Assembly (NCBI GenBank): GCA_004764695.1
Contig: SMSO01000014.1
Coordinates: 7,346,125 to 7,410,124 of the forward strand
Length of the DNA: 64,000 nt
Origin: Schizochytrium sp. TIO01
Taxonomy: Eukaryota; Protista; Bigyra: Labyrinthulomycetes
Direction of reading: 5' to 3'
Below, piece by piece: positions 39,801-64,000 of this stretch (the stretch's first letter is position 1; each line of letters begins with the position of its first letter). A model generated the notes under the pieces. It was not told where the DNA came from. It saw only the letters and a list, made by a program, of their open reading frames with translations, and ran no database searches. The translations under genes and the position numbers were made by a program.

Positions 39801-40688
39801 TTTTCACTGAGATAACAGTTTTCACTCAACGCCAGGTCTTTACAAAATTAGCAAGGGGAATGAATGCATGGGCTAGCTTTCGCAGCACGAAAAGTGAGTC
39901 TCTTGTGGTGTTGGTTGTGGAAGATTATCAAAAAGCGTATCGTATGACCATTCGTTGATGTCTATTACAATCTCCCTCCTTTATATGGATTCTCTCCCGA
40001 ACGAACACCCATAGTGTATCTCAAATATTAGCAGCCTCAGTGTTACTTATCTTTCATTGAAATTCAATTCTACAACGCCTCAAATTTGTCTTTCAGACCT
40101 GCATTCAATCAGTAACCTCCCAACTTTGGCCATAATCAAACCTGTATTGATATTTTCATCACCCTTACTCTTAACAATTCTTGTTCATGAATTTTCTTCC
40201 TCTGGACGATTCGTACGTCGGTTGTGTCGAAAACGAAGCAGGATTAGTCAGTGAAACGGAAAGAGACGATGCGTGTAATCGCACCTCTTTGAGAAAACTA
40301 AGCTCAGCTAAGTAAATCAAGAAAATTATACGCAGGCAAAGAAGTTAGCGCCTGACCTCGCGGTAGTATCGCTGATGATTTTAGGTATCATACGAATTGG
40401 TCTTATTGATATGAGGCCAATAGCAGAGCACTTCTATGTACAGATCTGCGATTCTCTTGTTGGTGCACTAACATGAAGTCTTTTTCTTTTAACTTGGAGA
40501 GATTTTCTTCTTTCAAGAAACTAGTCAAGAGGGATTTCTTAAACTCGAAAGGCGCGAAAAAAATTCCCAAAGTTTTTTTTAGTATGAGAGGGAAAGCCAG
40601 ATACGATCATCAGGCAATTTTAAATATTGCAATAGCCTAATAATATAATCCAGATCAGTGACGGCTGCATCCGGCTCATTGTCTTCTA

Positions 40689-41633
40689 CTAAAGAAGGCA
40701 AGAAGGCAGTGTATGCGCAGTAAAGGCCCTGCTTGCCGTGGTCGAGTCGGGCAGGTCTGCTTCATAGACGTACTTATGCTGGTCAGTGTCGAGGTAATAG
40801 TCCTTATTAAGGATAGCTTTGGTCGTAGGGTCCGACTTGACCTGGACATAAGTCAGCGCAGGGCTGTCCTTATTCTGCGGGATGCACGAAATATTCCCCT
40901 TCTTTGGATCGTAGGTATTGAGCCACACGTAATTCGAAGTGTTGTCCACTGTGCGGTAGACATTAATGTATGTTCGCAGCGGCACATTTGAGGGCCCATT
41001 ATCCACTGTGGTGTACATGACCATTTCCTGGTAAGCTACATTACCCAGCAGCGGCTCTCTTGCGAGTTCTCCGAGCTGTGCACACCGAGAAACCGCAACG
41101 GCGTTGCGAAAGCCTGTGAAGAGGCAAGTACTGCCTCGCTGGCTGTGCCTCTTGAAGTTAATGCTCCTTCGGCGACTGCGAATGCGTACCTTGCCATTGG
41201 CCACGGGAGGAATTCCACCAATGAATCGCCAATCTACGCATGTTCGAAAACCTCCAGGTAGTTCTCCACGCCGAATGATCGTCTCAGGCCTCCAGGCAGC
41301 AGCATCCTGGTTGAAAGCGGCCAGCGTGAGTAAGTCCTTGCCGTCTGTAAGCGGGTAGTGGTAGTGTGTTCCATGCAAGTTGAGATTGTCCCAGTTCAAC
41401 TGCGCCTTCGCTGCTTCCGGTCTACGATCAGGGGAGTAGCCCAGGCGATACTTTATAGCATTACTGGTAGCCTTAGGGTCTGAAGGAATGGTAAAGTAGC
41501 CCGTGGTGGCGGAACAGAACATGGGCATGCTCCAGGTGCCATTAATAAGCGATTTCTCGCCGCCTAGGACATGTTTTACTTTGCTAAGTCGGTCCACTGC
41601 ATTCTTCAGCGTTGTCGCAGTATCACACGTCAT
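40689..41633 (-). CDS. Hypothetical protein (possibly frameshifted at the 3' end)
   Basis: 314-aa ATG-initiated ORF with an A-rich leader. No recognisable motif. An alternative frame continues past the stop to ~40580. Confidence 0.6.
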   Translation of the reverse strand: MTCDTATTLKNAVDRLSKVKHVLGGEKSLINGTWSMPMFCSATTGYFTIPSDPKATSNAIKYRLGYSPDRRPEAAKAQLNWDNLNLHGTHYHYPLTDGKDLLTLAAFNQDAAAWRPETIIRRGELPGGFRTCVDWRFIGGIPPVANGKVRIRSRRRSINFKRHSQRGSTCLFTGFRNAVAVSRCAQLGELAREPLLGNVAYQEMVMYTTVDNGPSNVPLRTYINVYRTVDNTSNYVWLNTYDPKKGNISCIPQNKDSPALTYVQVKSDPTTKAILNKDYYLDTDQHKYVYEADLPDSTTASRAFTAHTLPSCLL

Positions 41634-41958
41634 CTTGCCGTGTGCTTTTTTGTACTTGTTTTTGTTGGTTTATTACTATTCTTTTCTTATTCTTTCTCAC
41701 ACCAGAGATAAAAAAGATAGTTTACGAAGGAGATTTCGTTTTTTGCACCTTTACAGTTTTGTATATTTTTGTTTGTCTTTGTTTTTTGTTTTTACAATTC
41801 TACCTTTCACCCCTTTTCTTATAAAGGGTTCGTTCTTATCTATGGATGGTATATTATTTTATTTTGCAAGTGTAAGTTTTCTTCTTTTTGTTTTACTTTG
41901 TTTTGATTGTTTTGAAATCGCTAGTCTAAACCCCAACCCTCCCAAAAAACAGCAAAAA

Positions 41959-43569
41959 CTAATGAACTCCTGTGTACTGCTTTGCAGCTGCGTCAGCCAC
42001 AACGTGAACATCGCCAAGGATCAAGGTAGTGGATAGTGCAATGCCGATGATTCCCAGGCAACCAATGAGGGTACCAATAAGGATGCAAGCAAGCAAGAGG
42101 TGGCGCGGATCTTGGAGCTTCTTGGGAACCACCTTGATAAGCACCACAATAAGAGGCACGACAAGGAAGATCGTCACAATGAGAGGAACGAAGCTAAGTG
42201 CATTCAATCTCTCTGTATAGCTGCGGTTATCAGTTCCGCTATCATCAATTGAGGTCGAGGTGTCTCCCGTTTCAGGGATGGATGCAGTCGGCGTGGTGAA
42301 GTCCGTGCGCACTAGAACCTCCAGATCGTCGTTGTCTGTAGGGTAATACTCAGGGCAAACATCAAGCAGAGCACAGAGCCCCGACTCATCGAGCTGCGCA
42401 AAGTTACAGAGGGTGTTCTCCAGGCAAGCATTTGCGCAGGCCTGCATTGTTTTCGCTCCTGAAACCACAACGATGCTGTTTGTGTAACCCCTGTTCTCAC
42501 AGAAGTGGCCAATGACTGCATTGAAACCTTTATAATCGCTTGCAGAAACGTTAGGCGCCGCGCCACGAGGAACGGGGCGCACGGTAATGAGATCGCAGGG
42601 CCCGCGCTGCGTCGGAGAGTAGGTCCCTGTGCAAACGCGGCACTCTTCTGTCTGTGCATTCCACGTTGCGTGCGAGCAATCGCCTGTGCACTTCTTCGCG
42701 CAATTGATAAGACTGTTTTGCTTGCTTGTAGTACCTCCCGAGGTGCACCCTGGCCCATTGACGAGTCTGTAGCCAGAAGGAACCTTGATAAGGTTGCTGA
42801 AATCATTGATTCCCTTCATGGCTTTGGTCATGCAGACATCCTGGTAGTCCCCGTAGTACTTCTCGATGAGCTGCATGCTCGTAGACTGGGTTGCAATGGT
42901 GCTCTTACGTTGCAGCAAGGTGCTACCTGTATCGTCATTCTCTATATCGCAACTTGCATAGAAGTAGCCCTCAGTATCCTTGATATTCACGAAGTTGCAC
43001 TCACCCGTGCACTTGCTCACTGCATCCACTTGATTGGTGACGGCCTCTTTCTTCAGAAGCTTGCCTGAGGCAGACCCACAGGTAGTATAACTGTAACTCA
43101 CAAAGTCTGCTTCAGGATCTGCATTTGTTCTGGTCAAGGCGCGCGCGGCTGTATAGTTCGGCAGTAGTGGGGGCACCACAGAGGAGTCAATCGGATCACA
43201 AGGAGACCCCGCATTGCAGTGCTGGTCCTTTCCATTGCCTACGAATCCCGCTGTTTTACCTGAAGGATCGTAGTCCACCGTCTCGATGAGCCTATACTTG
43301 CTAGCACCACGCACCTCGTTTGTGTCTCCCATGAATTCGCCGCCATCTCGGGTAGCGTGATCACCTGGAAGCTGGCAAGTACCATCATAAAAGTACTTTA
43401 CTGCCATTCCACCGCCTCCCTTGCCGGTCTTGATGTTGTGATTCCAGCCCCCGAAGTCTCTTTCGAAGTTGTGCAGGCCGTGCCAGGCATGCAGCCACGG
43501 GATGCGGTACAGGAAGAAGCCTCTGTAAGTGTCTCCAGTTTGAAAGTGGAGACTCGCTACAAACACCAA
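41959..43569 (-). CDS. Membrane-anchored PAN/apple-repeat surface protein; 5' part apparently disrupted
   Basis: Three PAN-like Cys motifs (SKCTGECNFV, NCAKKCTGDCSHATW..C, ACANACLENTLCNFA..C), a S/T linker and two C-terminal TM helices. The ORF starts at TTG after a stop, and Cys-rich frameshifted sequence lies upstream. Confidence 0.7.
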   Translation of the reverse strand: MVFVASLHFQTGDTYRGFFLYRIPWLHAWHGLHNFERDFGGWNHNIKTGKGGGGMAVKYFYDGTCQLPGDHATRDGGEFMGDTNEVRGASKYRLIETVDYDPSGKTAGFVGNGKDQHCNAGSPCDPIDSSVVPPLLPNYTAARALTRTNADPEADFVSYSYTTCGSASGKLLKKEAVTNQVDAVSKCTGECNFVNIKDTEGYFYASCDIENDDTGSTLLQRKSTIATQSTSMQLIEKYYGDYQDVCMTKAMKGINDFSNLIKVPSGYRLVNGPGCTSGGTTSKQNSLINCAKKCTGDCSHATWNAQTEECRVCTGTYSPTQRGPCDLITVRPVPRGAAPNVSASDYKGFNAVIGHFCENRGYTNSIVVVSGAKTMQACANACLENTLCNFAQLDESGLCALLDVCPEYYPTDNDDLEVLVRTDFTTPTASIPETGDTSTSIDDSGTDNRSYTERLNALSFVPLIVTIFLVVPLIVVLIKVVPKKLQDPRHLLLACILIGTLIGCLGIIGIALSTTLILGDVHVVADAAAKQYTGVH

Positions 43570-44216
43570 GCCATGCGGAGGAGAGGCGGCCCGTGCTTAT
43601 ATTCAGAGAAGTCTTGAGAATTCCCGCGCATCGGGCTCTTCTGCGCCCCGCATTGCCTCAGGCGTGACTTACACTGAGCGCGTGGCCACCGCTCGAGCCG
43701 CTGCAGACGCCGCAATCACCCCTCGCACAGTGGATGCTTCTTCAATGGCTCCTCAGTCTCTATCCTTTAACCCTACAGGAGCCGTGATTCTCGCAGATGC
43801 AGTCGCACCAGCTGTAGCCGCAGAGAGGTCCCGTAATCCTGATGAACGCACTTGTAAGGTAAACAAGTCTCTCAATGCTTTGTTTCTTGCTCTGGGTATA
43901 TGTACAGTGCTAGCCGCAAGCATTGCAGGGCGTTACCTTTTCCCTAGGGATTACAACTGATCATAGTATTGTTGGTGTTGTTGTTGTTATTGATGGATAA
44001 GAAAAGGGGAAATAAATGTACAGCAAGAAGAAGGAAAAAAATAAAAACCAAAAGGTCAAAACAAAAACAAAAACACATAAATGAAAATATAAATTGCGTT
44101 TATTACTTTTAGAATAAACAACACACGCAACAGTAAAAGGGATACATACATACAGTTTTTTTCGCAACTGTGCTGCATCCTTCAAAAGTAGTAATTTACA
44201 AAAACTTCAACCCAGC

Positions 44217-45272
44217 ATGGCTGTAGGCGAAGGCTTCTTCGTAAGCGGATTCATATTTTTGGTCGCTGGAATTTCCTTATGCGGGGCTAGTGCCTCTGCA
44301 GGTTTCACAAAAACTGTCATTAATACTGCGGGAAGCAATGGTAGTTCCACTGCGACGACTGTAGCAGCAACACAGTCGGGCGGAAGTGATACGAATACTA
44401 CTGTAACTTCGAGCGGCACCAATAGCACAGTCTCTGCAACGGCAACAGCAACAGCAACAGCAACGGCAACAGCAAGCTCCTCTGCTACGAGCACCGCTGC
44501 TCCTACCGCAGCTGCTTCGCCTGATTGTGTTGCTCAGTCAAGCTCGGTTTCCATTTGTACAACTGCATGGTATCGATTGATTGACAAGACTTACTACGAT
44601 AATGGTAAGACTAACTACTATCTCGGTACCGACTCCCTCCTTAATAACAGTTATTATCCCGTGGGAACATTTCCTGCTGACCCTGATAATCCTCGAGATG
44701 ATATGCAATGGAGCTTCAAGAAAAACTCATTGAATAGCACCAACATCTTTACAATTATGAACAAAGCCAATGCAGCGATGATATATGTAACGGAAGCCTA
44801 TGAATCTGTAGAAGCGATGACCACTGCATCAACTCCCATCGAGATCAAACTGGTGAAAGCTGGACCAGGAAACGGCAGTTCAATCATAGGCACGTTTGAG
44901 CTCTATAACACTAACACAAATCACCTCATTTACCGGATCCCTGCTGCCAACAATGGTCTAGTTTCGTGCTACAACGGCAACACTCCCAAGTACTCATCGG
45001 TGAATTCACAGTACTACATCGAGCACATTTCAGGTCCTTCGAGAGCATCTGGTACTGGAACATCTGGAACATCGAAAGAGATCAACGCGCATGCAATCAC
45101 CCTTCTCGTCGTAGGTCTGCTGTTTCTGATTTCGGGCGCGAGTCTCTTTGGCGTGGGAATTAAGCACAGGCGCGCGGCGAAGCGGGAGCGCGCAGGCGGG
45201 TTACTTGCCCCTCAGGAGGGGCCGGAGCAGATCGCACAGGTGCCAACACCCGTTGGTGGGGAGGAGAATTGA
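44217..45272 (+). CDS. Membrane protein with S/T-rich stalk and probable beta-trefoil (ricin-B-like) domain
   Basis: N- and C-terminal TM helices, (AT)n/Ser-Thr linker, three beta-repeats (WYRLIDK, FTIMNK, FELYNT) with QW/QY motifs (DMQWSF, NSQYYI). Confidence 0.7.
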   Translation: MAVGEGFFVSGFIFLVAGISLCGASASAGFTKTVINTAGSNGSSTATTVAATQSGGSDTNTTVTSSGTNSTVSATATATATATATASSSATSTAAPTAAASPDCVAQSSSVSICTTAWYRLIDKTYYDNGKTNYYLGTDSLLNNSYYPVGTFPADPDNPRDDMQWSFKKNSLNSTNIFTIMNKANAAMIYVTEAYESVEAMTTASTPIEIKLVKAGPGNGSSIIGTFELYNTNTNHLIYRIPAANNGLVSCYNGNTPKYSSVNSQYYIEHISGPSRASGTGTSGTSKEINAHAITLLVVGLLFLISGASLFGVGIKHRRAAKRERAGGLLAPQEGPEQIAQVPTPVGGEEN

Positions 45273-45304: not shown

Positions 45305-46900
45305 ATGGCCAGCACCGCTGCCACTTCGACTTACGAGTCTCTGCACCAGAGGTTGCTCGAAATCGGGATGTGGCGCTCTTTGCCACCCTCCGTCGCGGCA
45401 CCCGGGACGCGCGAAAGCAGCGCACGGAAGCGAAAGCGGGCGCCCAGCCCAGCCGGAACCATCGTCTCACAGACAGTCAGTAGAGCTATTTCTTCTTCTT
45501 CTTCTTCTTCTTCTTGTTCCTCTTCCTCTCTTAAAACGAGAGACGAGGGAGAAGAACGGGAGAGTGGAACAGGTTCAACGAGAGAAAGGGAACATTCAGA
45601 ACGTGAAGAACTCCTTTCAGGGCCTGAGAATTCAGAAGATGAACTTTCGGAACATGAGGAACTCCATTCCGGGCCTGAGAATTCAGAAGATGAACATTCA
45701 GAACATTCAGAACATTCGGAATCCCTTTCTAGAGAGAATAGAGCAGACCTAACGACCGCGCAGGTAGGCAATTCGGTAGATAGTCCTATAACACAGAGGG
45801 GCGTGGAAAAAAATCAACGAAGCCGGAGGCGTCGTAGAGTGGTAGATTTAAATGCAGTATTGGCAAAAGCCATTGCGCTGCCGGCAGAAGCAGATCGTGC
45901 GTGCGCAGAGGCACAGCCGCCGCTGGTGAGGCGCTTGCACGTCGAGGTTCTTAGTGTGATATGGAGATGCCCTGATTTATGGGATCCTCTCTACGGGCTT
46001 CCCCTCCTGCGCGCTTTTGCAAAGTATGAAGGTTTCACAGAGGAAGAATTAGCCACGCTGCGCGATGAGGAGCTGAAGGCGGCGCTGGCGTGCTACGGAG
46101 ACGGCGCCACGTTTCATTGTTCGTATTCCGAGCTCGAAAAGTTTCTTCCTAAGGACCGCCACTCTCCTGAAGAGTACAGGGATTGCACTGACGCGAGGGT
46201 GTGCAAGGCGTGGATGCAAGAAGTCGATCCCGAATTGGACAATTTTGGCGCTTATCGCATTTACGCCTTTGGATACTTTTGGGAGGTGGACAGGCAGAAG
46301 AAGTTCGAGTGGCTGCGACGCCACTTCGATCCTACTCGTGCTGCATCAGGCGGTAGACGCACGAATTCGTTCGCCAGTGGATTTTGCTCTGATTTCCGCG
46401 AGACCTTTGTTAAAGTGGAGGAAACCGACCTGTGCCCACTCTGCCCCGGCGCCATCCTCTCGACTCTTTTCCGCCTCAGGCTCCTTCCGTTCGAGTTACC
46501 CCTGGGGATTATCAAATCTAAACGGAACCCAATGATAGCTTTCAAGGACAGATTTACTCCTGATGAGTCGCACGACTTGATTGAGTTGCACGGCGTCGAT
46601 TTTGTGCTCGATCGCTACGCTCAAGTTCTTGGCAATATAGCAAATTTCGATGAGAATTTGAAGAACCTCGACCTTCAACTGCTAGGAGTCTACGCTATGA
46701 TAAAAGAAAGTATTGAGCCGCACGCTTACACCCCAGAGGAAAAGAGGGGGATGCTCACTGCCCGGCTCTCTCAGCCAGACTATTTTAACTCGGTTGGTTC
46801 ACCCTTCCATGGTGTGTTCTATCATGCGTTTCTAGGTGCTCTGAAGGGCTGGTTGTTTTATAAAACAAACAAACAAACCACACAACAAAATGAAAGGTAA
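45305..46900 (+). CDS. Hypothetical protein with disordered S/E-rich N-terminus, basic NLS-like stretches, and a C-terminal domain shared with 54417-55730
   Basis: 531-aa ORF; RKRKR and RSRRRRR stretches; C-terminal similarity detailed in findings. Confidence 0.75.
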   Translation: MASTAATSTYESLHQRLLEIGMWRSLPPSVAAPGTRESSARKRKRAPSPAGTIVSQTVSRAISSSSSSSSCSSSSLKTRDEGEERESGTGSTREREHSEREELLSGPENSEDELSEHEELHSGPENSEDEHSEHSEHSESLSRENRADLTTAQVGNSVDSPITQRGVEKNQRSRRRRRVVDLNAVLAKAIALPAEADRACAEAQPPLVRRLHVEVLSVIWRCPDLWDPLYGLPLLRAFAKYEGFTEEELATLRDEELKAALACYGDGATFHCSYSELEKFLPKDRHSPEEYRDCTDARVCKAWMQEVDPELDNFGAYRIYAFGYFWEVDRQKKFEWLRRHFDPTRAASGGRRTNSFASGFCSDFRETFVKVEETDLCPLCPGAILSTLFRLRLLPFELPLGIIKSKRNPMIAFKDRFTPDESHDLIELHGVDFVLDRYAQVLGNIANFDENLKNLDLQLLGVYAMIKESIEPHAYTPEEKRGMLTARLSQPDYFNSVGSPFHGVFYHAFLGALKGWLFYKTNKQTTQQNER

Positions 46901-46981: not shown

Positions 46982-49769
46982 TCAAATGAATTCGACTTTA
47001 ACTCCTGGCGCCCTTGCTACTGCTGTTACTTCTTCTTCTTCTTCTAATTCTTCTTGCTCGTTTGCGGTGCTGCTGGGATCTGGCAGTCCCTCCGGTAGGG
47101 TTCCAGTGCCGAGATCCGTCACTGTGTGGATACCTCTAGCACGCAGCCATTGCGCGGCTCTTTTCGCATCGCCCTGGAAGGCGCTTAGTACTTTGTAAGT
47201 TTTACTGCGACGATCGTGGGTCTGCATAAGAGTCTTGTGTTGCGAAGTAAAGGCACTGTAATAACCTTCTTTGCCCTTTGCGCTGGTGGCGCTGGCGCTG
47301 CTACGCGTCTTGTTCTTTGCGATGCGAGTTTCTGTAATCACAGAGGAATCGTGCGTTTGCCACTCACACATCGGAGGGACTCCTTCCACAAGTCTTTCAG
47401 TCCAATGCCTCTGCGCCTCCGTAAGTTTCAAGTGAAAGGGACCAGATCGAGAGAACTGTGCGAGACGCAATAGCTTTTTGATAATCTTTGCTTCTTCTTC
47501 TCCATTAAAGGAAGACGGTAAACCAAAGAGATCAGACCAGCACGTGCGCTGTGCTTGAAGAGGTGCGGCTTGAGGACTGCGACTAACTCTATTTCTCCTT
47601 GCAGAAGAAGACGGTCGTCTTTTTTGCTGTTGTTGCTTTTGTCTGTGCCGCACGGACCGAGGGGTCTGCAAAGAGTTTTCCTTGTCTGGTGCTTTCTCAA
47701 AGACTTCCGCATAAGAGTTACTGCGGCGTCTTGGTTCTTCCTCCTCCTGCTTCCATTGATTCTTCTTCTCGATGGGTATTCGGAACTCTTCTTCTTCTTC
47801 TTCTTCTTCTTCTTCGCTCCATACAGTCCATTTAGTTCCTTTAGGCGTTTCAACCGAGTGGTGGTCCAGGTGATCTTCTTCTTCTTCTTCTTCTTCTTCT
47901 TCTAATCCTCCTCCTAATTCTTCTTCTTCGTCACTGGACCATGTGGCTGGAGGGTAGACCGTGATTTCCTGGAACTGCCTTGTGAGTTGCACGATTTCCC
48001 TCTTTTCATACACGTAGCGAAGCGGGACTACTTTGCCCGACATGAGAGATCTGGTAAAGTCGAGGCGGAACTCAGGAAAGGGCTGAGCAGGCAAATGGAA
48101 GAGCGAAGGGTAATTGTCCTGAACGTAGCTATGTCTCCCTGCCAAACAAACATAAGCTGTGTGAGGCAGCAAGTTCTCTGGTCCTTGCATAGCACGAATG
48201 ACATTTCTAGGGAAGATCTCCTTAGCGATCTCCAGTAGCTTAGGTTTAAGATTGTGGACCAAAAACTCGACCATTGGATCTCCCAGGAAGCCTCCGCGAT
48301 GGCGATTAGCCGCCACGAGTCCTGCTATGCGGTGGCCTTCGTCATTCAGAAAGTAGTAGTGGCCTCGCGAGTCTCCCTCGCGCGACATTCTCTCTACTGA
48401 AGCATGCTCGAGTCTCGCAAGAAGACGGATCTCCGCGTCACCGAACAAAGTGCGGGAGTTCATTTCTACTGCAAAGGTTTTGCGCAGTGAGTAGAGAGAA
48501 GTGCGTGCTTTTGCCAGTTTGTCCCAATGCGGGACCAGGCAGAGCAGTTTGTGCCAGGCTCCTTCTAATCGCTTTGTACGCTCTTCCTCGTAAAGTGTGA
48601 CCTCCTTACCTTTGAAAGACGCGAAGAGCAGAGAAAGGAGGTCATTCTGTTCTGTAATTTCAATTCTTTCATCAATCATGGTTAACGCCACACTCATAGC
48701 CATGACAGGGCAGCGAGCACGATTCTGCAGGTCGGGAAATACCACAGCTCGCCGGGTGCCAACGCGCTGCGCCCACTTTCTGCCCTTACTGTAGAACAAC
48801 TCGATGGGCATAAAAACAGAGGTATCAGTGCTATCACTACGATCAATGACGATTTTCGTAAGACTACTGAACTTGGTCCCAATGAAATCAGAGGGCCTAC
48901 AGCCAATTGCACCTAGCAACGTAACGAGGGTGTGATAGAAAGCTCTCTCGCGCTCACTGAAGTGGGAGGCTTTATCGTGCATAAGCATCTCACAAAGCTC
49001 GGTGTACTCTGTCCTGTAATGTAGAGGTGGAGCGAGGTTCTTTGGAATCCCTGCAATCTCCGTGTCTGTGTCTTCTTCTTCTTCTTCTTCTTCCGCTTCT
49101 TCGCCCAATCGGCCCTTTTCTTTACTCTCAGGCTGTCTGCTGGAATGTTTAATCGTCCTGGCTTCAGACAATGCCTTTTCATAACCTCTAGCCACGGCTT
49201 GTGTGATAGACTTAGATGCAGAGATCTCCTCCCATCTCTTCTTTGGCGTGAGAATGCCAAGGTCCAGCGAATCTTCCAAGATATCACGCACGCACGAACG
49301 AAGACGGGAAACGCGGGTGGTTCCGTCCCGACTGGTGATGGTCTTAATCCATTCTAAGAGAATCATTCGAAGATTGGCATCTTTGCCTTGGCCAAGCTGG
49401 GTGATTACCAACAGACTCGTGATTGCCAAGAAAGCCTCTGCACTACTATTATTGCCAGCGCCCGGCTCTACCGTTCCCACCACCTCTAGCCACGCTGCAA
49501 TCTCCCCAAACCAACGCTCCGTGAACTTTGGTTCCTCGCCCAATTGATTCACAAAGAAGCTACAGCCGTTGCACATGAACCATTGTCCAAAGGCCTTCAA
49601 AGGAGTCACGTTCGCTCCCCAAGTTCGCTTTTTGGTGCGTTCGCGCAAGGCCTTAGACTGTCGCCAAAGCCTGTCCAAGGTGTTCGCAGTCACTCACAGA
49701 GGTGGAGCGTGCTTCTTCTTCTTCTTCTCTTTCACAAGCGGGGGGTGGTTGAGGAGAATCGTCCATCAT
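46982..49769 (-). CDS. CryptonS-like tyrosine recombinase with a GCR1_C-like C-terminal region; a 4-bp duplication separates the ATG (49769) from the main 903-aa frame (49693)
   Basis: Catalytic-order motifs GCRPSD (R), YSKGRK (K), ARCPVMAM, YSLRKTFA (H/Y-x-x-R), LEH, GHYY (Y). Crypton-like VCLAG..Y...PSLFHLP. C-terminal W....GLPSSF, HWTERLVEGVPP and HDRRSK. Confidence 0.75.
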
Positions 49770-49877: not shown

Positions 49878-50468
49878 TTAAAGATGGAAGTGCTTAGGTT
49901 TGTTACTATGTAGATGCTTAGCACGACTTCTCATGTAAGTAGTTCTAGTCGACTGGGAGCCCCCGAGGTTCTTCTTCGCTCTGTAAATCATAACTCCCGA
50001 GCCAGCGACTGCTCCGCCCCCAAGCAAGACGCCAGTTGTTACAAGTGCTATTCCTGCGCCCTCGCCTCCCTTGCTGCCTACCTGATTGTTGGCTGCTCTT
50101 GAAATAGAGGCGGCTCTGCCTGGAGAAAGGGCATTTGGGTCATCCAGGATCCTTTCTAAGCCAGTCACTCCTTCACCTTCTGCTACCAGATCTATGTAAC
50201 TCTGCACAGTCGTGTCGTTCGAGGTATCCTGCAATGCATTGTAAATAAAAGTAGCGTTCTGGATTGCAAGAGGTCTTGTGGAGTTAGCAATGAGCGTCTG
50301 GAGCTTGGTGATTGTGTAAATATAATCGGTCTGATCAGCCCAGAAGATTGGTTGATCATCTCCGTAATCAGTATTAGCAGGCCAAGGCCACGCTGTTGTT
50401 GAAGTCGCCGCCGCCCCGGTTGTAGTTTGTGTTGCTTCAGCTGTTGTAGCCGCTGTAGTGCTGGACAT
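49878..50468 (-). CDS. Small membrane protein (Thr-rich N-terminus, Gly-rich C-terminal TM, basic tail)
   Basis: ATG at 50468 (MSSTTAATT...); TM GIALVTTGVLLGGGAVAGSGVMIY. Confidence 0.7.
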   Translation of the reverse strand: MSSTTAATTAEATQTTTGAAATSTTAWPWPANTDYGDDQPIFWADQTDYIYTITKLQTLIANSTRPLAIQNATFIYNALQDTSNDTTVQSYIDLVAEGEGVTGLERILDDPNALSPGRAASISRAANNQVGSKGGEGAGIALVTTGVLLGGGAVAGSGVMIYRAKKNLGGSQSTRTTYMRSRAKHLHSNKPKHFHL

Positions 50469-54181: not shown

Positions 54182-54239
54182 TTAGGTTAGATAGAAGGGT
54201 AGAGCTTAGGTTAGATTAGGTGAAGTGTAGAGCTTAGGT
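54182..54239 (+). repeat. Degenerate TTAGG/TTAGA cluster in the divergent intergenic region between the HNH and Myb genes
   Basis: attaggttagatagaagggtagagcttaggttagattaggtgaagtgtagagcttagg: four TTAGG, two TTAGA, and TAGAGCTTAGG twice. Confidence 0.6.
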
Positions 54240-54416: not shown

Positions 54417-54502
54417 ATGGAGGATCAATCATTCACAGCCCAGAATCACGCAGTCGGTCCTAGCTTTTCTCCGCAGCCGCTCTCACCTCGACAAAGAAGA
54501 AG

Positions 54503-54537
<35 letters not shown>

Positions 54538-56175: not shown

Positions 56176-56420
56176 GTCTCATCACTCGTTCACTTCAACA
56201 GACGAAGAAGACTCTGCAAATCTCCACCATTGACGTCTTATCAGTGATCAGGATCAGAGGGAAACAAGAACTGGGAATGGTAGGGAAAGGGGGATTCAAG
56301 GAAAGGGACAATTCTCGTTTCGAAAAAGAAAGTGCCCTCGAAAACAATAAAGTTGAGAGAAAGAAAATTTGCGGTCGGCCATCTTAGATGTCACGTCTGA
56401 AAAGTTTTACTTTTGTCATT

Positions 56421-56628
56421 TCATTTCTTTCGAGGTAAAAGATTTTGATCTCTCTTCCTTAAAAGGTTTTGAGGTGTGCAAATGAAAAGATCACTTTCTG
56501 ATTTTTGTAAAAGCTGAAAGGGGAAAGTTCATTTCTTTCAAGGTAAAAAAATTACACTTAAAAGATTTTTGAGGTACGCAAAACGGAAAGATCGCTTTCA
56601 GGTTCTGGTAAAGCTGAAAGGGGGAAAG
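56421..56628. repeat. Imperfect ~105-bp tandem duplication upstream of the REase-kinase gene
   Basis: TCATTTCTTTC.AGGTAAAA...TTTTGAGGT..GCAAA..AAGATC.CTTTC...AAAGCTGAAAGGGG occurs twice. Confidence 0.8.
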
Positions 56629-56857: not shown

Positions 56858-59452
56858 ATGGCTCTGCACCCCGAGAAGCCGTCGAATCTCGTACGGAGAC
56901 CTTCAACGAGGTCTATTGTTGGTGTTTTTGAGAGAGTGTTGACTGTTTCTCGGAATTTGCAAGAGAAAACTGGTGAATTGGCTTCGAAATTGAAGGTTCT
57001 TGAGGCCCGTGTGCACGAAATTCGACCTTCCATTAATCCTTCCTTGGCCCTGGCCATTGATGCTGCAGTGAGAGGAGACGAAAAAGCACAGAAAATTGTA
57101 CGAGAGAGTGAATCCAAAGTTCCTCTGTGTCAGAAAAGGGCGGTCGCGGCGTATACAGCGGCAAGCCACTCTCTCTTTCGTGTCCTTGCAGACACTGCAG
57201 CACTGGAGGAAACAAAGACAGAGTGTGCACTCTTAGTCTCTCAGGCACTCTCCCTTTTTCAAGTTGTTGAAGGTAAGCAAAACCCGAACACGATTGATAG
57301 GCCGTCCATTAGTGAAATCGTTAAGAGTGTGAAAGGGCTTGAAACGAGGCAAGAAGAAGAAGAAGAAGAAGAAGAAGAAGAAGAAGAAAAGGAGAAAGCA
57401 ATGCCCTTTCCTCGTCTCTCAAGAAAGAAAGCCAAGCACGGCTTGTCTGCGCCCCTTCACGCGAAAGGGGACGGGACCACTCGGGATCAACGTGTTGGAA
57501 AGGCGGGAGGCGGAGACGGAATGGCGAGCAACCGACTTAGCATGAACAGTCGCTCGTCGCAGCGAACTGACAACGCGGGGATGCTTAACCGACTTGCCCT
57601 CTATCATGACCGTCTAAAAACTGAACAAGCTAGACTTGAGAAACTTGAAGATGAATTCCGAGAGCTGAAAAGGGAGCTACCTGACGGTGCTGCTCTTCTC
57701 CTTGATGATGTTTTAAATGGGGACGTTACGTTTACGAATGCAAGAAAAGACGTGAAGGAAAATACGAATTTAGAGGATCAAGAAAAGGCTTCTTTTCTTG
57801 GAGCTCTGCGCATAGCTTCTGATATGAAGGAAGCCCGGCTAGAAATCAAGGAGACAAAAGGAAAGATTAGAGAATTTGAGTCTGGAGGCGGTGAAGAAGG
57901 AGACAGCAATTGGCACTTCTCCGGATCAGTTTGGGAAGCCCTTGGGTGCGCTTTACCTGAAATTACTCACGATCCTTCTTTACCCGTATCAAACACGAAT
58001 ATCTCAAATACGGATAACTATCCTTTTGCCCCGAAGACTGTCCAGGGGATTGACTGGGATAATTTCATGGCATACTGCGCAGATAAAGGACATTTGGAAA
58101 AACTTCAGCAAGAATCAACTAATGAAAGTGTTGGTGATTTACTTGAGAGGTCAATGCGCTCTCTTTATATAAAGTCTGAGAGTTCCGTTGGACTTTGTTT
58201 TTCACAAGTTTTCCAAGCAGTCATCTCTACTCTAGACTTCATTCCAAAAAACCTCCGCTACACGTCTGACAAGTCCTCGACGGGTGGTCTTCGACCAGAT
58301 TTTATTATTGGTACCGTCAGAGATGGGGTTACAGTACCTATAAATCCCTTGCTTGTGGGTGAACTGAAGAGTTACAGTTCAGATTCTGAACCATTTTATT
58401 TCCGTTGGTGTGAAAGGGATGGACATGACCCTGAACGATGCCCTAATCGTGCTCATTCTGAGAGGCACACGAATGTGTCCCCAATTAGACAGTTGTATAA
58501 CTACATGGTCGACTCTGGCAAGTTTGTTGGTGTTTACTCCCACTATGGCTGTACTGCGGCATTCTTCCGTGACTGTAAAGGCACTCTTGTTACAACACCG
58601 ATGCTCCCTGACGACTCTGCTCCAATGAGCGTGCCACAGTTGCTCGCCTTGGTTATCATGATTGCCATGTCTGAGGAGGTGCCGGAATTTTACGACGGTA
58701 AAAGGCCCATTTTGGTGCCATGCGAAGGTACAAGAAGTTGCAAAGGTGTCAATCATCACCATACCAGTCTACCTGATGACTGTAAGTGGGCAGAGGACGA
58801 TCTCAAGCGTAGCGCTAAACCTAGAACAGGAGCCACTGCAACGAGAAGGGCGGCGAACAAGTCCCTTTACAAAAAGCATGACACTCCCATCACCTGGGGT
58901 GATCTCTACAACTGCAAGTACATTTCTGACTGCTACACAGGTAACGCAGTTGAGTGTGAGATCATGGGCGAGCGAGCAGTGGTTAAATACAACGATTTCG
59001 GCGATCACGAAGATGCTGATGAGCGTCTTGACCAGATTGATTTTGAAGCTGAAGTCTACGCAAACTTGTCTGACTTGCAGGGGGATTGTATTCCCAAATA
59101 CCTGGGCCATGGCTCCATTACCGATACTGATGGATCCCAGTATGGTTTTGCTACCTCTTATGCAGGCGAGTCACTCTCGTATGAATCTCTTGATTCTCTC
59201 ACTGAAGAGTTCAAGACAAGCGTCAAGGATGCCCTAGACAAGATACACGCGCGTGGTGTTTTACATGGCGACCTGAGACTTCCGAACATCCTGAAGTCGA
59301 AGGACGATCCCGAGAAGGCAGTTTTTATCGACTTCAGTCATTCAGGGATCTATGACGACCCTGATGATCAGTTCTTTCAAGACCACGCAAGGCTTGAGAA
59401 GGAGAACCTCGTCAAGCTCTTGAAAGGCGAAAAAATCAAACAAGTTTTTTGA
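56858..59452 (+). CDS. Crinkler-type PD-(D/E)xK restriction-endonuclease-fold + atypical protein kinase fusion
   Basis: LRPDFIIG..LVGELKS..IRQLYNYM..GVYSHY (REase). AVVK, EAEVYANLSDLQGDCIP, IHARGVLHGDLRLPNIL, FIDFSHS (kinase). Coiled-coil N-terminal part. Confidence 0.82.
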   Translation: MALHPEKPSNLVRRPSTRSIVGVFERVLTVSRNLQEKTGELASKLKVLEARVHEIRPSINPSLALAIDAAVRGDEKAQKIVRESESKVPLCQKRAVAAYTAASHSLFRVLADTAALEETKTECALLVSQALSLFQVVEGKQNPNTIDRPSISEIVKSVKGLETRQEEEEEEEEEEEEKEKAMPFPRLSRKKAKHGLSAPLHAKGDGTTRDQRVGKAGGGDGMASNRLSMNSRSSQRTDNAGMLNRLALYHDRLKTEQARLEKLEDEFRELKRELPDGAALLLDDVLNGDVTFTNARKDVKENTNLEDQEKASFLGALRIASDMKEARLEIKETKGKIREFESGGGEEGDSNWHFSGSVWEALGCALPEITHDPSLPVSNTNISNTDNYPFAPKTVQGIDWDNFMAYCADKGHLEKLQQESTNESVGDLLERSMRSLYIKSESSVGLCFSQVFQAVISTLDFIPKNLRYTSDKSSTGGLRPDFIIGTVRDGVTVPINPLLVGELKSYSSDSEPFYFRWCERDGHDPERCPNRAHSERHTNVSPIRQLYNYMVDSGKFVGVYSHYGCTAAFFRDCKGTLVTTPMLPDDSAPMSVPQLLALVIMIAMSEEVPEFYDGKRPILVPCEGTRSCKGVNHHHTSLPDDCKWAEDDLKRSAKPRTGATATRRAANKSLYKKHDTPITWGDLYNCKYISDCYTGNAVECEIMGERAVVKYNDFGDHEDADERLDQIDFEAEVYANLSDLQGDCIPKYLGHGSITDTDGSQYGFATSYAGESLSYESLDSLTEEFKTSVKDALDKIHARGVLHGDLRLPNILKSKDDPEKAVFIDFSHSGIYDDPDDQFFQDHARLEKENLVKLLKGEKIKQVF

Positions 59453-59558: not shown

Positions 59559-60308
59559 TTAGGTTACGGAGAGGATCTCTCGCAAGTGATTTTCCACTGC
59601 AGAACTTGTGTACTCACTGAACCGCCGCTTGTCTTTGGATTGATGGCAAGTTTCGAACAATGCCAACGGATCCACTGTTGTTGCTGCTGATGCTGCTGCT
59701 GCTGTTACTTTAGTCGCTTCGGCGTAGTCTTGGGAGGGTCCAAGCAATGGAATTGGGCCCGGGACAAAGGAGTTAAGTAGCCACGAAAAGAGCACACGAG
59801 CGGTCCTTCCATTGCCAAATGCAAAGGGTTTGAGAAACAGGAACTTTGCTATAAATTCTGTCGCAACGTGCAAAGCATCTTGCAATGCGGCGGCTTCTAT
59901 ATCTTTTACATCTTGCTTTCCTGTGATCGAGAAAGGTGTGGTTTGGTATTTTATAATGTGATTCCTCAGTGCACGATCAAGAAGCCCAGGGGTTGGATGA
60001 ACAAGAGGAATTCTCGTCAAATCACAGGTAATTTGGTGACGCCTGAATGAGAATGCGGATGCACTTCGCAATTTGCTGCTGCTGTGGGGCTGGCCGAGGA
60101 TGATTGCGTTAAGTTTGCAGAGAAACGAAAAGGAAAGGCCGCCATCATAATGCATTGCGAACTTGTAAGCTTCAACGAGGTTGGTTCTGTTTTTTTCTTC
60201 GGTTTCCAGGGCTACTCGCTGTAAAAACCAAGTTATCAAGGGGCCGTTTTGCAGTTCGCAGCGACTCCTTGCTTCTCGCGCTAGTTCACTCAAGTCAAGG
60301 CCGGTCAT
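59559..60308 (-). CDS. Fic/Doc-family protein with non-canonical active site
   Basis: FLFLKPFAFGNGRTARVL versus canonical HPFx(D/E)GNGRxxR; upstream LCKLNAIILG is typical of the Fic helix. Confidence 0.8.
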   Translation of the reverse strand: MTGLDLSELAREARSRCELQNGPLITWFLQRVALETEEKNRTNLVEAYKFAMHYDGGLSFSFLCKLNAIILGQPHSSSKLRSASAFSFRRHQITCDLTRIPLVHPTPGLLDRALRNHIIKYQTTPFSITGKQDVKDIEAAALQDALHVATEFIAKFLFLKPFAFGNGRTARVLFSWLLNSFVPGPIPLLGPSQDYAEATKVTAAAASAATTVDPLALFETCHQSKDKRRFSEYTSSAVENHLREILSVT

Positions 60309-60480: not shown

Positions 60481-60921
60481 TTAAACCCAAGGTTCCATTC
60501 GTTCTCTGGAGAGCCGCACGTCAAAAATGACACCATCGTTCGCACCGGTAATCAAGGTGCTAGAGAGTGTGACATCAAAGAGATAATTGCCGTAAGAAAT
60601 GTCCTGCTTTTGGATGTCTCCTAGACAGTCAATGTCTAACTCAGGGAGGCAAATTTCGCCTAGAAAGCCGCGCAGCCGGGCTGGTGCAATGTAAACCCTA
60701 TCCCCGTCTTCTTCAATTAAGGCAAGATCAGACTCTTCGAGAGGGAGCACCTCGTGCGCAGCAGGGGAAACGCACATGGCCACTTTGGCATTATCATACT
60801 TGTACGCAAATAGAACGACCGTCTCACTAAGCAACTCAAGAGAGTATTCAATGTTGTCCTGATGAAATCCAACATCTTCTTCCTTTTCGTAATCCACGTA
60901 GAAATTCGGTAGCCAAGCCAT
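60481..60921 (-). CDS. Small acidic hypothetical protein (146 aa)
   Basis: ATG at 60921 (MAWLPNFY...) after an A-rich leader; globular-looking, D/E-rich. Confidence 0.65.
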   Translation of the reverse strand: MAWLPNFYVDYEKEEDVGFHQDNIEYSLELLSETVVLFAYKYDNAKVAMCVSPAAHEVLPLEESDLALIEEDGDRVYIAPARLRGFLGEICLPELDIDCLGDIQKQDISYGNYLFDVTLSSTLITGANDGVIFDVRLSRERMEPWV

Positions 60922-61326
60922 TTGTTTTCTGGGTCTGGTACGTTTGTTTTCTTCTTCTTGTTTTGGTTCTACGTTTCTCTTGGGTTTGGGCCGGTTCTGC
61001 AGTGGATTGCTTGGAAACATGGCAACAATAAACGCGCACGCCCAACGCAAAAGGAATAAATCAGAACAAATTTGGGTTTTGCCTGATCATTTTACAATTT
61101 TGTCCTATGGCTTACTACAATCAAAATTATCCTAGTGTAAACCCTATCAACCTCATTAGTAAGAATATGTACTTCCAGGAGTCCCACCTGCTTGAACCAT
61201 TCTCGACGCCACAACTATATAATGCTACTGGACTGTTACCTTTGATTCATCGACTAAGTTGTCTCCTACTATAAACTCTAGTATGAAAAATAACTCGAGT
61301 GGTGTGTTCAGAACAGTTAGGGAACA

Positions 61327-61392
61327 GTCGAATCGACAGGTCGAATCGGTCGATTGAGTCGATTCGACTCAATCGACTGGTCGAATCGGTCG
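61327..61392. promoter_or_regulatory. Palindrome flanked by iteron-like repeats (candidate origin or recombination site)
   Basis: Perfect 14-bp arms GTCGATTGAGTCGA-T-TCGACTCAATCGAC (61349-61377). GGTCGAATCGGTCG direct repeats at 61339 and 61379; GTCGAATCG also at 61327. Confidence 0.55.
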
Positions 61393-61639: not shown

Positions 61640-62125
61640 ATGACTAGCACCCAGGTAGCTACTACAACTACATCCAGCATCCAAGACAGAACGAGCACAA
61701 TTACCGAGCTCCAGCGCCTCGGCGCGCTCGCGCGCTCAATTGAAGGGACAGAAGGAGCCTCGGACGGCACTTTGCAAAGCAACACAGACCGCCTCGGCAC
61801 GCTCTGGCTGGGCGCAGCGGACTTACTTTTTCGTTACCCAGTCAGTCTCTCTTCAATCCAGTCATCTAGCATGCTTAGTGCACACCTTGGAAGTGACCGA
61901 GATAGCTTGGTTGTGTGGGCAAGTGCGCCTGACGCTTCCGTGACTGTGGATGAATACGAAGCAGAACTTCGTGCGATACAGAAAACTGTGGGCGAGACCA
62001 GGCGGGACCGCGTGCCCTCCATTGTATCAATCGTCTCTCTGGTTGCTGTGGTCGCAGGTTTACTTGCTGCTTTCCTGATGCTTCAAAGGGAGTTACCTCG
62101 TTTGCGCTGGACTGCTTTCTTTTAG
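61640..62125 (+). CDS. Small protein with a C-terminal transmembrane helix
   Basis: 161 aa, Thr-rich start, TM IVSIVSLVAVVAGLLAAFLML; ATG follows a (CATT)/(CTTT) microsatellite. Confidence 0.65.
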   Translation: MTSTQVATTTTSSIQDRTSTITELQRLGALARSIEGTEGASDGTLQSNTDRLGTLWLGAADLLFRYPVSLSSIQSSSMLSAHLGSDRDSLVVWASAPDASVTVDEYEAELRAIQKTVGETRRDRVPSIVSIVSLVAVVAGLLAAFLMLQRELPRLRWTAFF

Positions 62126-62328
62126 GCATAATTCTTTCTGGAAACAAAAACAAAAACAAAAACAAAACAAAAACAATTTAGTTATTGTCGTAGGTTTGAA
62201 TCGTCACCCTTTCAGGGGAGAAAGGCGAGTTTAGGTTGAATCTTTTTTTCTTCCTTCTTCTTTCATTAAGTAACCTAGCTAAGTCGCATTGGAAATGAAT
62301 GAATGAGTGGGGTGGGTGGGAGATTCAC

Positions 62329-62787
62329 TTAAGCGGCGGTCGCGTCTTCGATGATCACCCTTTCCTGCGAGAAAGGCGAGTTTGGGTCACTATCCAGCAT
62401 CTCACGAATGGCCTTTTCGTCGAGAAGACCCGGGTAAGTTGCAATCGTGACCTGCAAATCATCGGAATAGTCAATCATTCTCAGATCCCAAAGGAGTTGT
62501 CGCACAAACCTCTCGTTATCCAGTCTTATCATAATCTTTTTGAGATCAGGGGCTTCGTAGACCTCACGGAAAAATTCATGGATAGCTGCATCGTAATAAA
62601 GTTCACCTGAGAAAAGCTCATGCTTAGAGATAGTCATTGTTTCACATCCCCTCATTCTCGTCACGTTCTCCTTGAACATTTCTTCCGTATACTCATCGTC
62701 CTCGTTGGGCTCAAACCCGTCGTCACCAATTTCGAATGAAAGGTGCGGGTGGCAAAAGTTCCCACCTCCAAGAAAATGACAAACCAT
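62329..62787 (-). CDS. Tandem-array acidic protein, paralogue 1 (152 aa)
   Basis: Colinear with 63109-63567 (GGNF..P..SF.IGD.GFE, SGEL.YDA, LKKI.IRL, MI.YSDD.QVTIA.YP.LLDEK.IR.ML, SPFSQ.RVIIE). Confidence 0.8.
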   Translation of the reverse strand: MVCHFLGGGNFCHPHLSFEIGDDGFEPNEDDEYTEEMFKENVTRMRGCETMTISKHELFSGELYYDAAIHEFFREVYEAPDLKKIMIRLDNERFVRQLLWDLRMIDYSDDLQVTIATYPGLLDEKAIREMLDSDPNSPFSQERVIIEDATAA

Positions 62788-62821
62788 TGCGTTTTTGTTT
62801 GTTTTGTTTGATTGCTTGGTT

Positions 62822-63005
62822 TTTTTCCTGCAAACTTTCTTCCTTTTCTTCTCGGGCTAGATAATTTGGCAAGGTAATTATTCTTTTCTGCAAACTTTCT
62901 TCCTTTTCTTCTCGGGCTGGATAATTTGGCAAGGTAATTATTTTTTCTTTCTGCAAACTTTCTTCCTTTTCTTCTCAGGATAGATAATTTGGCAAGGTAA
63001 TTATT
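62822..63005. repeat. 60-bp tandem repeat x3 upstream of paralogue 1
   Basis: CTGCAAACTTTCTTCCTTTTCTTCTCGGGCTAGATAATTTGGCAAGGTAATTATT x3; a single copy at ~63615-63672 upstream of paralogue 2. Confidence 0.9.
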
Positions 63006-63108
63006 TATTCTTTCTGTTCTTCCTTAATTTCTTCTTTGTTAAGTAACCTAGCTAAGTCGCATCGGAAATGAAATGAGCGGTGAGAAGGGCCGGGAGGATC
63101 TTAGGAGA

Positions 63109-63567
63109 TCACTTAAGTGGTCTTGTTTCAATGATCACCCTTCCCTGAGAGAAAGGCGAGTTGCTGCCTGTGTACAGCATCTTGCGAATGGTCTTTTCAT
63201 CGAGAAGACTCGGGTAAGCCGCAATCGTGACCTGCACATCATCGGAATATTCAATCATTTTCAGATCCCCAATGAGTTCTTCTAAAAAACTCTCGTCATT
63301 CAGTCTTATATAGATCTTTTTGAGTTCAGGGAGTTCGTAGACCTCCTGGAAAAATCCTTTGATACCTGCATCATACCAAAGTTCACCTGAGTAAAGGTTG
63401 TTCCTGCAGATCAGCATTTCTTTACATTCCCTCATTCTCATCACGTTCCGCTGGAAAAGTTCTTCGGGATAATCACCGTACTTGTCGAGCTCAAACCCTT
63501 CGTCGCCAATTTGGAATGAAAAGAGTGGGAATCCAAAGTTTCCGCCTTGAAGAACATGGTAAACCAT
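63109..63567 (-). CDS. Tandem-array acidic protein, paralogue 2 (152 aa)
   Basis: See paralogue 1; flanking sequence is also duplicated (TAACCTAGCTAAGT.GCAT..AAATGAA). Confidence 0.8.
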   Translation of the reverse strand: MVYHVLQGGNFGFPLFSFQIGDEGFELDKYGDYPEELFQRNVMRMRECKEMLICRNNLYSGELWYDAGIKGFFQEVYELPELKKIYIRLNDESFLEELIGDLKMIEYSDDVQVTIAAYPSLLDEKTIRKMLYTGSNSPFSQGRVIIETRPLK

Positions 63568-63763
63568 CGTGTTTGTTTGTTTGTTTGTTTGTTTGTTTGT
63601 TTTTCCTAGTTTTTCTACAAACTCCTTCTCCTTTTCTTCTTAGGGTAGATAATTTGGCAAGGTGATTATTCTTTCTATAAAGTTTTTTTTCTTACTTCTT
63701 TTCTTTGTTATGTAACCTAGCTAAGTTGCATTGAAATGAATGAATGAGTGGTGAGGAGATCAC

Positions 63764-64000
63764 TTAAGCGGTCTTGTTTTCAATGATCACTCTTTCCTGG
63801 GAGAAAGGCGAGTCGTTGCCTCTATACAGCATCTTGCGAATGGTCTTTTCATCGAGAAGACCAGGGTAAGCTGCAATTGTGACCTGCAAATCATCGGAGT
63901 ATTCAATCATTTTCAGATCATCAAGGAGTTCTTGTACAAAACTCTCGTCATCCAGGCCTATCCAGATCTTTTTGAGTCTAGGGAGTTCGTAGACCCCCTC
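63764..64000 (-). CDS. Tandem-array acidic protein, paralogue 3 (5' part outside the window)
   Basis: Minus strand reads EGVYELPRLKKIWIGLDDESFVQELLDDLKMIEYSDDLQVTIAAYPGLLDEKTIRKMLYRGNDSPFSQERVIIENKTA*. Confidence 0.8.
   Translation of the reverse strand, partial: EGVYELPRLKKIWIGLDDESFVQELLDDLKMIEYSDDLQVTIAAYPGLLDEKTIRKMLYRGNDSPFSQERVIIENKTA

Follow-up and report, generated by a model that had tools for sequence, protein, structure and literature searches.

What is the densely packed gene block that follows a gene desert in what is likely a chromosome of the thraustochytrid Schizochytrium sp. TIO01, and what is a tyrosine recombinase doing within it? The locus lies in a stretch of 64,000 nucleotides (GenBank assembly GCA_004764695.1, contig SMSO01000014.1, positions 7,346,125 to 7,410,124, forward strand), hereafter the window, whose own coordinates are used throughout. 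An initial annotation, made from the letters alone, had proposed that a protist here carries either a giant element analogous to Starships or a virus-like integrant. Our analysis retains the protist (stramenopile) host and the virus-like character. We read the block as likely mirusvirus DNA of the Soporavirales type (relatives of herpesviruses in protists), either the left part of the viral genome or a large fragment, now residing in a thraustochytrid chromosome. It is distinct from the two elements used for comparison. These are AurliV-1 (CE1), an episomal Soporavirales mirusvirus of Aurantiochytrium limacinum (PMC12606086; 10.1101/2023.06.15.545109; PMC12768974), and AurliV-2 (LE-Chr15), the sole chromosomal mirusvirus integrant listed in PMC12768974. 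The idea of Starship-like cargo is disfavoured, since the recombinase family is found in AurliV-1 and in a probably mirusviral region of Hondaea, and since the supposed cargo consists of families or types of mirusvirus accessory genes.

The gene-dense block is a real feature. From 20.0 to 40.6 kb, only two open reading frames (ORFs) of at least 150 amino acids (aa) start with ATG, both within a microsatellite at 25.8-26.5 kb. The coding share is 13% in 1-40.6 kb versus 77% in 40.6-64 kb (15 main ORFs), and nine ORFs of at least 300 aa are found in the block versus none across 30 shuffles. This bears out the early description of a gene-poor stretch of about 20 kb followed by a packed block of more than 23 kb. 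Spacers between block genes are as short as 32 bp and no introns are evident. The GC content at third codon positions (GC3) is 0.45-0.58 in block genes and 0.41-0.56 in three flank genes; thus, the step in GC content reflects coding density and not foreign composition. Dispersed repeat families are confined to 2.6-36.5 kb and only local duplications occur inside the block. Scans with Pfam, PHROGs and NCBIfam (15-16 ORFs) gave no family or domain match for most block ORFs. The block and the genes that carry the comparison with mirusviruses are as follows.

40689-64000, unstranded: gene-dense block, likely mirusvirus-derived; the window end truncates its right side, and its left edge is within 38.9-40.7 kb or at about 43.55 kb.
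41959-43407, minus strand: Cys-rich PAN/apple protein, 482 aa, with two C-terminal membrane segments (PF00024, E 7.7e-4, under the cut-off; hydropathy).
46982-49576, minus strand: Crypton/NDC10-like tyrosine recombinase, 864 aa (R227, K264, Y362xxR365, H391, Y407), with an acidic linker and a C-terminal domain common to its homologues.
50648-52597, plus strand: N-anchored stalked protein, 649 aa, with a HELGH zincin-like motif (aa 305) and the architecture of AurliV-1 ORF149.
54417-55730, plus strand: Myb/SANT protein, 437 aa (PF13873, E 2.1e-4, 21.6 bits for a cut-off of 21.7).
56858-59452, plus strand: coiled-coil, PD-(D/E)xK-type nuclease and kinase protein, 864 aa (Pfam kinase E 1.6e-4 to 0.012, under the cut-offs; nuclease by motifs).
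59559-60308, minus strand: Fic-domain protein, 249 aa (PF02661, E 1.7e-5, above the cut-off), with the catalytic His replaced by Lys.

Members of the tyrosine recombinase superfamily share the catalytic signature R-K-HxxR-H/W-Y. The block protein displays the pattern R-K-(H>Y)xxR-H-Y, and its nearest ESM Atlas clusters (range 0.92-0.96) include oomycete hypothetical proteins (0.96), NDC10_II (0.94) and Phage_integrase (0.93). Both agree with the assignment made at the outset. No Pfam, PHROGs or NCBIfam profile matched the recombinase and word-based homologue searches with it returned nothing. PDB sequence searches gave no significant match. AlphaFold models of the recombinase were poor (predicted local distance difference test, pLDDT, 33 and 38), and Foldseek found no match for them. 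A HMMER search of 1.84 billion representatives returned two homologues in total, P0006 (Hondaea GBG32787.1, E 1.4e-33) and P0007 (a Logan protein, E 1.4e-9). R227, K264, R365, H391 and Y407 are kept in all three sequences, which places them in the superfamily by their catalytic residues; the first His of the signature is replaced by Tyr, Asn and Tyr. The domain located C-terminal to the acidic linker also aligns between the recombinase and its homologues. GBG32787.1 is titled ‘subtilisin-like protease 10’; its first ~750 residues are the recombinase, and two genes were probably fused in the model.

The Hondaea protein connects the enzyme to mirusviruses. GBG32787.1 is listed as the top match of AurliV-1 ORF726 (E 3e-90), for which Foldseek retrieves NDC10_II and Flp (PMC12606086 supplement). 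ORF726 is not itself among the HMMER results; it may be outside the library or clustered away. By sequence, the block recombinase belongs to the same family as ORF726, via GBG32787.1. In the same supplement, GBG32786.1 (Pif1) is the top match of AurliV-2 ORF1014, and GBG32790.1 (RNA polymerase large subunit) is that of AurliV-1 ORF33 and AurliV-2 ORF794. GBG32787.1 adjoins GBG32786.1 and is three numbers away from GBG32790.1, gene order being taken from accession order. Because these accession neighbours are top matches of mirusvirus genes, the Hondaea recombinase gene is probably in mirusviral DNA too.

Further gene families of the block were compared with AurliV-1 and AurliV-2 by eye, without scores. 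The comparison covered five of the 31 parts into which the AurliV-1 table is divided, one of the 30 AurliV-2 parts and some individual rows, with the first 400 letters of each translation. Four of the 16 block ORFs belong to families common to these viruses, the recombinase by search and the Myb, Fic and restriction endonuclease (REase)-kinase proteins by eye; two more (PAN and zincin) agree by type. The Myb protein is related to AurliV-1 ORF241 over both repeats and the C-terminal domain, with the matching motifs FxxEExxLxSI and KxRYSxxExxxxxExN. The Fic protein is related along its length to AurliV-1 ORF523 and shares the motif PFxxGNGRTARVLF. The REase-kinase protein, whose REase part rests on the motifs PDF..GELK..QLYNY, is related to AurliV-2 ORF95 (PDFxI, PLLxGELK, SxIRQL) and to AurliV-1 ORF729/460/459 (SPIxQxYxYM). 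The catalytic motifs of Fic and PD-(D/E)xK enzymes served as general reference. Both AurliV-1 and AurliV-2 also have genes of the PAN-membrane type (AurliV-1 ORF319, AurliV-2 ORF853/854) and of the anchored-zincin type.

Gene order agrees as well. Three REase-kinase genes, the recombinase gene and the Myb gene are found together at 208-226 kb of AurliV-1. There, the recombinase (minus strand) and Myb (plus strand) genes diverge, as in the window; ORF241 is 2.4 kb from ORF726 and the three REase-kinase genes are 6-12 kb from it. AurliV-1 also resembles the block in its dense, ORFan-rich layout and host-like GC content. In contrast, AurliV-1 is a 298-kb circle, whereas the block is joined to host-type DNA and has different intervening genes. 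The proteins match only in motifs or core domains, the catalytic His of the Fic protein is replaced in the block and no hallmark gene is in view there. AurliV-1 itself is ruled out as the source of the block since the proteins differ throughout. AurliV-2 is, like the block, chromosomal; it follows a near-identical kinase-RING gene and encodes a close REase-kinase relative (ORF95) as well as PAN and zincin proteins. It differs in its location between ribosomal DNA (rDNA) arrays and in having its next ORF ~5 kb after the kinase gene; the block starts 39 kb after that gene, past a dynamin gene, two tRNA-Gly genes and the desert. AurliV-2 is also ruled out: its table has no Fic entry, its left context is different and the ARCP motif of the recombinase is in none of its translations (first 400 letters).

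Several observations weigh against a mirusviral origin. Soporavirales mirusviruses are marked by an HK97-type major capsid protein, portal, terminase, triplex, PolB and a split RNA polymerase large subunit, in genomes of about 270-300 kb. No capsid, portal, terminase, triplex, PolB, RNA polymerase or A32 ATPase match was found among the block ORFs in scans with Pfam, PHROGs and NCBIfam, made without mirusvirus profiles, in a block cut at 64 kb. The same scans gave no match to the double jelly-roll capsid or A32-like ATPase that mark Polinton-like viruses and skiaviruses, with the limit that remote homologues could escape and that the block is cut. These results agree with the initial annotation, which had recognised no capsid, packaging ATPase or DNA polymerase in the window. 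In AurliV-1, the 30 kb around the recombinase gene (199.0-229.5 kb) contain no marker gene either, TBP being next; a 23-kb stretch without hallmark genes is thus expected and not telling. AurliV relatives are recognisable for only 4 of the 16 block ORFs, three of them through unscored comparison by eye; AurliV-1 and AurliV-2 are themselves reported to share only 48/152. REase-kinase and HNH genes are also frequent among Crinkler/RHS-type host effectors (PMC5289972), and kinases of thraustochytrids have been reported to pass from host to viruses or the other way. AurliV-1 has the recombinase yet stays an episome. GC3 is host-like in the block; AurliV-1 too is reported at host GC. Capsid genes of the reference strain are reported only on CE1 and LE-Chr15 (Collier et al., 10.1101/2023.06.15.545109); thus, if the window is from the reference strain, the block is a fragment.

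The junction with the flank offers evidence on both sides. The genes at the left edge, besides the PAN gene, are two.

40689-41633, minus strand: ORFan, 314 aa, without family matches.
43544-43960, plus strand: open frame, 138 codons long, encoding a membrane segment at the C-terminal end; its first ATG is deep inside, and it is head-to-head with the PAN gene.

In the DNA run X14, which is possibly the source of the window, a single contig covers 37830-41630 with no differences, joints or relevant loose ends. A join to host DNA is thus seen over an interval that ends to the left of ~43.55 kb. Across the same interval, no empty site or joint was seen in four runs, and att-like (attachment site-like) inverted repeats at 36.6-41.7 kb number 0 for a shuffle mean of 2.3. 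A comparison of short exact repeats between the edge and the remainder of the window, made with no control, revealed no pattern. In run X21, one base differs in 961. Of 24 listed runs, 22 (9 studies, 9 organism labels) carry 44-53 kb at 0.66-0.98 of words; the source may be among them, and few isolates may underlie the strains. The suggestion that an empty-site allele might be found at ~40.6 kb was pursued in four runs, with none seen; with the block near-identical in 22 of the 24 listed runs, no presence/absence polymorphism is apparent. No RNA run is listed among those with the block. In X1 and X21, two runs guessed to be RNA, contigs cover the first ORF (39252-41630 and 40590-41550) with little or nothing over the flank, a weak hint at most that is not used as evidence here.

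A second point along the edge deserves attention. The PAN gene lacks an N-terminal signal stretch and its frame stays open upstream without an ATG, so that its 5' end looks incomplete. It meets the 138-codon frame, whose 5' end also looks incomplete, head-to-head at 43540-43600, and the X14 contig would end at ~43536 if collinear. The position at ~43.55 kb may be a scar, the true boundary or a mis-join.

The last of these possibilities leads to the alternatives. If the DNA to the right of ~43.55 kb belonged to a free episomal mirusvirus that was attached to the chromosome only in assembly, the incomplete 5' ends and the contig end would be explained, and circular mirusviruses are reported to be common in thraustochytrid data. 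However, contig ends have many ordinary causes, and the PAN-membrane gene, of AurliV type, is to the left of the join, on a contig that also holds non-coding flank. We regard such a mis-join as very improbable. The same low probability is given to a part of a skiavirus (a thraustochytrid nucleocytovirus) or of a Polinton-like virus with acquired Soporavirales genes. Skiaviruses co-occur in thraustochytrids, have many genes of apparent Soporavirales origin (10.64898/2026.07.28.741200) and are reported to lack many hallmark genes. On the other hand, long-read skiavirus genomes are circular-mapping, the available text of the same paper contains neither ‘integrase’ nor ‘integrat’ and mentions only YqaJ recombinases, and no jelly-roll capsid or A32 match is seen in the block. 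A fast-evolving subtelomeric host region, gathering virus-derived and effector genes singly and with no single insertion, would fit the host-like GC3, the near-identity in 22 of 24 listed runs and the Soporavirales ‘footprint’ reported in a thraustochytrid nuclear genome (10.64898/2026.07.28.741200). A coding share of 77%, spacers down to 32 bp and the lack of evident introns and host repeats over 23 kb argue against it, as does the recombinase-Myb-kinase neighbourhood common to AurliV-1, and its chance appears slim.

More room, if still little, is left for a non-viral giant element of the Starship kind, in which a Crypton-like recombinase would move Myb, Fic, nuclease/kinase and surface genes, with gene exchange with mirusviruses in the same nucleus. 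Fungal Starships are likewise large gene blocks with a tyrosine recombinase and accessory genes, and the first gene of a Starship is a DUF3435 captain; direct repeats of the target site and presence or absence among strains are further marks of such elements. The lack of virion and replication genes in 23 kb, the oomycete and fungal Crypton-like clusters among the Atlas neighbours, the abrupt start after a gene desert and the lack of host repeats inside are in line with such an element. However, the host is not a fungus, the accessory genes are of virus families and the recombinase has no DUF3435 match, indeed no Pfam match at all. It is the sixth frame of the block and faces the block edge, 6-9 kb inside the first gene; its internal position, unlike that of a captain, had been recognised from the start. 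Both named recombinase relatives stand in a mirusvirus context. In AurliV-1, some 150 kb separate the Fic, PAN and zincin types from the recombinase, so that these genes do not form a single inserted module. Neither a second copy nor an empty site was seen in the four runs. A Crypton, for its part, is a small element with the recombinase as main gene and short bounding repeats. The block enzyme resembles those of Cryptons (CryptonS/F, NDC10_II, DUF3504) in its recombinase features (Atlas 0.92-0.96) and catalytic residue pattern. Yet it is embedded among packed genes, with gaps of 81 and 301 bp to its neighbours, no flanking repeats were found, it has no Pfam match and the two HMMER homologues include no Crypton.

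How would a mirusvirus have entered the chromosome? Provided that the block is viral, a circular nuclear episome may have inserted itself into the chromosome by means of the tyrosine recombinase that it encodes, with a short site as the target of the enzyme, a scenario that we hold tentatively and rate slightly below an even chance. After such an entry, the enzyme is expected close to an end of the integrant; in the block it is found 6-9 kb inside the first gene. The scenario is suggested by phaeovirus elements of Ectocarpus (PMC13236599), giant viruses that integrate into a stramenopile chromosome through a tyrosine recombinase generally encoded close to one end, together with a sequence box in AurliV-2. 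Phaeoviruses differ in belonging to Nucleocytoviricota, in another realm, and in having a CC core and att inverted repeats, none of which were found at the block edge. The box is that of AurliV-2 ORF16 (32803-35220), the first ORF after the subtelomeric kinase gene; this ORF has no domain annotation, and inspection by eye suggests a TG-L-R box like that of tyrosine recombinases, followed by a Pro-Asp-Pro stretch as in Crypton enzymes (PMC12606086 supplement 4). ORF16 would be a candidate terminal recombinase of the known integrant. Alternatively, because AurliV-1 has the gene yet stays circular, the recombinase may resolve or amplify the episome (multimer resolution or Flp-like copy control), entry then occurring by subtelomeric recombination. 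The membrane proteins would be viral surface components or accessories acting on the cell wall, and the nuclease/kinase, Fic and Myb genes would act on the host.

For a viral block, we rate the chance that a complete provirus continues beyond 64 kb as somewhat below even. In the full proposal, the block would open a third, complete mirusvirus provirus of Aurantiochytrium, inserted by a virus-encoded Crypton-type tyrosine recombinase; this is unlikely overall. If true, the enzymes of the block, AurliV-1, Hondaea and AurliV-2 ORF16 would together indicate that Soporavirales possess an integrase of their own and can alternate, as phages do, between episome and provirus; Crypton-type recombinases would also be linked to giant viruses. 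Even as a fragment, the block would add one more case of genes passing from viruses to thraustochytrid hosts.

For AurliV-2, entry has been attributed to subtelomeric recombination (10.1101/2023.06.15.545109), and a pseudogenised virus-like polymerase is mentioned on another contig. The main texts of PMC12606086 and PMC12768974 do not use the word ‘recombinase’; the sole mention of the enzyme is a Foldseek entry in a supplementary table. No description of a third element or of a mirusvirus integrase was found in the literature searched; preprint supplements and the journal version of Collier et al. might list the region. Provisionally, we consider the block undescribed. The intact-looking recombinase is a candidate enzyme for the entry of mirusviruses into host chromosomes. 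A second distinct integrant or fragment that carries such an enzyme near its edge, in a culturable and transformable host, would make chromosome entry and exit of mirusviruses directly testable. Given its near-identity in runs of nine studies, the block may sit unnoticed in many laboratory and production strains.

The remaining features of the block, from left to right, are listed below.

44217-45272, plus strand: membrane protein, 351 aa, with an N-terminal hydrophobic segment, a Ser/Thr stalk and a C-terminal anchor (hydropathy).
45305-46900, plus strand: ORFan, 531 aa, with an acidic low-complexity N-terminus and no usable ESM Atlas match.
49878-50468, minus strand: Thr/Ala-rich small protein, 196 aa, with a Gly-rich hydrophobic stretch near the C-terminus, under the hydropathy threshold.
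52724-54064, minus strand: coiled-coil and HNH nuclease candidate, Crinkler/RHS-effector-like, 446 aa (HNH_2 E 0.086, under the cut-off; coiled-coil matches).
60481-61020, minus strand: acidic ORFan, 179 aa (open reading frame).
61327-61392, unstranded: array of GTCGA(A/T)TCG units centred on a palindrome of 29 bp (61349-61377, 14-bp arms; repeat and palindrome search).
61640-62125, plus strand: small protein, 161 aa, with a C-terminal membrane anchor (hydropathy).
62190-64000, minus strand: tandem paralogues, comprising a remnant tail at ~62.2 kb, two whole copies (62329-62787 and 63109-63567, 61% identical) and a third that is truncated at 64000.

Most of the gene content first noted is recovered here. 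The Fic protein passes its Pfam cut-off in spite of the His to Lys replacement, the Myb regulator is just under its own, hydrophobic anchors in 5 of the 16 block ORFs account for the several membrane proteins, and the paralogue array has two whole copies, a cut one and a remnant. For the HNH and REase-kinase ‘toxins’, the family resemblance stands, weakly for HNH_2 and through sub-cut-off kinase matches and REase motifs for the other; ‘toxin’ is a label drawn from that resemblance. The 649-aa HELGH protein is likely a surface metallopeptidase, as predicted from its sequence; a word-based search gave no homologue. Motif searches of the AurliV tables with the HNH gene, two ORFans and the paralogues yielded chance matches only (first 400 letters), and AurliV-1 table parts 22 and 25 revealed no further homologue by eye. 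No locus related to the block came out of scans of viral and metagenome contigs. Exact look-up of 20 window proteins or start variants found three in the collection, one of them from the block (the PAN protein, in Logan); gene models and contig breaks may account for this low count. The palindrome described as ori-like is itself present, its 14-bp arms exceeding those in 20 shuffles (at most 11 bp); a palindrome of the flank (10030-10069) is longer, with 17 bp. Two 28-bp TTAGG/TTAGA-rich units at 54182-54239, between the HNH-like and Myb genes, form the sole telomere-like cluster noted in the block. Non-coding tandem duplications are located upstream of the kinase gene (56420-56626, ~108 bp, 74%) and between the paralogues (62820-63035, three units of 60-63 bp).

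The left flank has a host context.

1-1767, plus strand: kinase and RING/IBR-like gene, near-identical by eye to ORF13, which opens the AurliV-2 table (25.8-27.9 kb there).
5733-5851, plus strand: 5S rRNA gene, host context.
8911-8982 and 16028-16099: two identical copies of tRNA-Gly(GCC), flanking the dynamin gene.
10186-12630: Mx/dynamin-like gene, intronless.
18766-19956: membrane protein of the flank, with exact copies in JGI/IMG, eukprot and Logan.

The 5S genes of A. limacinum are reported to be mostly subtelomeric and oriented away from the telomere, with a few internal ones. The position and orientation of the 5S gene, together with the position of ORF13 in AurliV-2, suggest that the block is probably near a chromosome end, which would lie some 25 kb to the left of the window; the internal 5S genes leave doubt. 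Together with the exact copies of the flank membrane protein, these features make A. limacinum or a close relative the most likely host. The gene desert was also considered as a centromere, for which the passages of PMC12227449 available gave no support. The flank palindrome at 10030-10069 has 17-bp arms and two TTTCCCGGGAAA units, 117 bp upstream of the Mx/dynamin-like gene. We take it to resemble a STAT-type site. A short dispersed family with internal TTAGG (telomere-like) runs, 77-89% alike, is found at 2655-2893, 6885-7075, 15270-15473, 33665-33879, 35588-35727 and 36438-36534. A second dispersed family, of ~420 bp, is located at 14.4-14.8, 35.0-35.5 and 35.8-36.2 kb.

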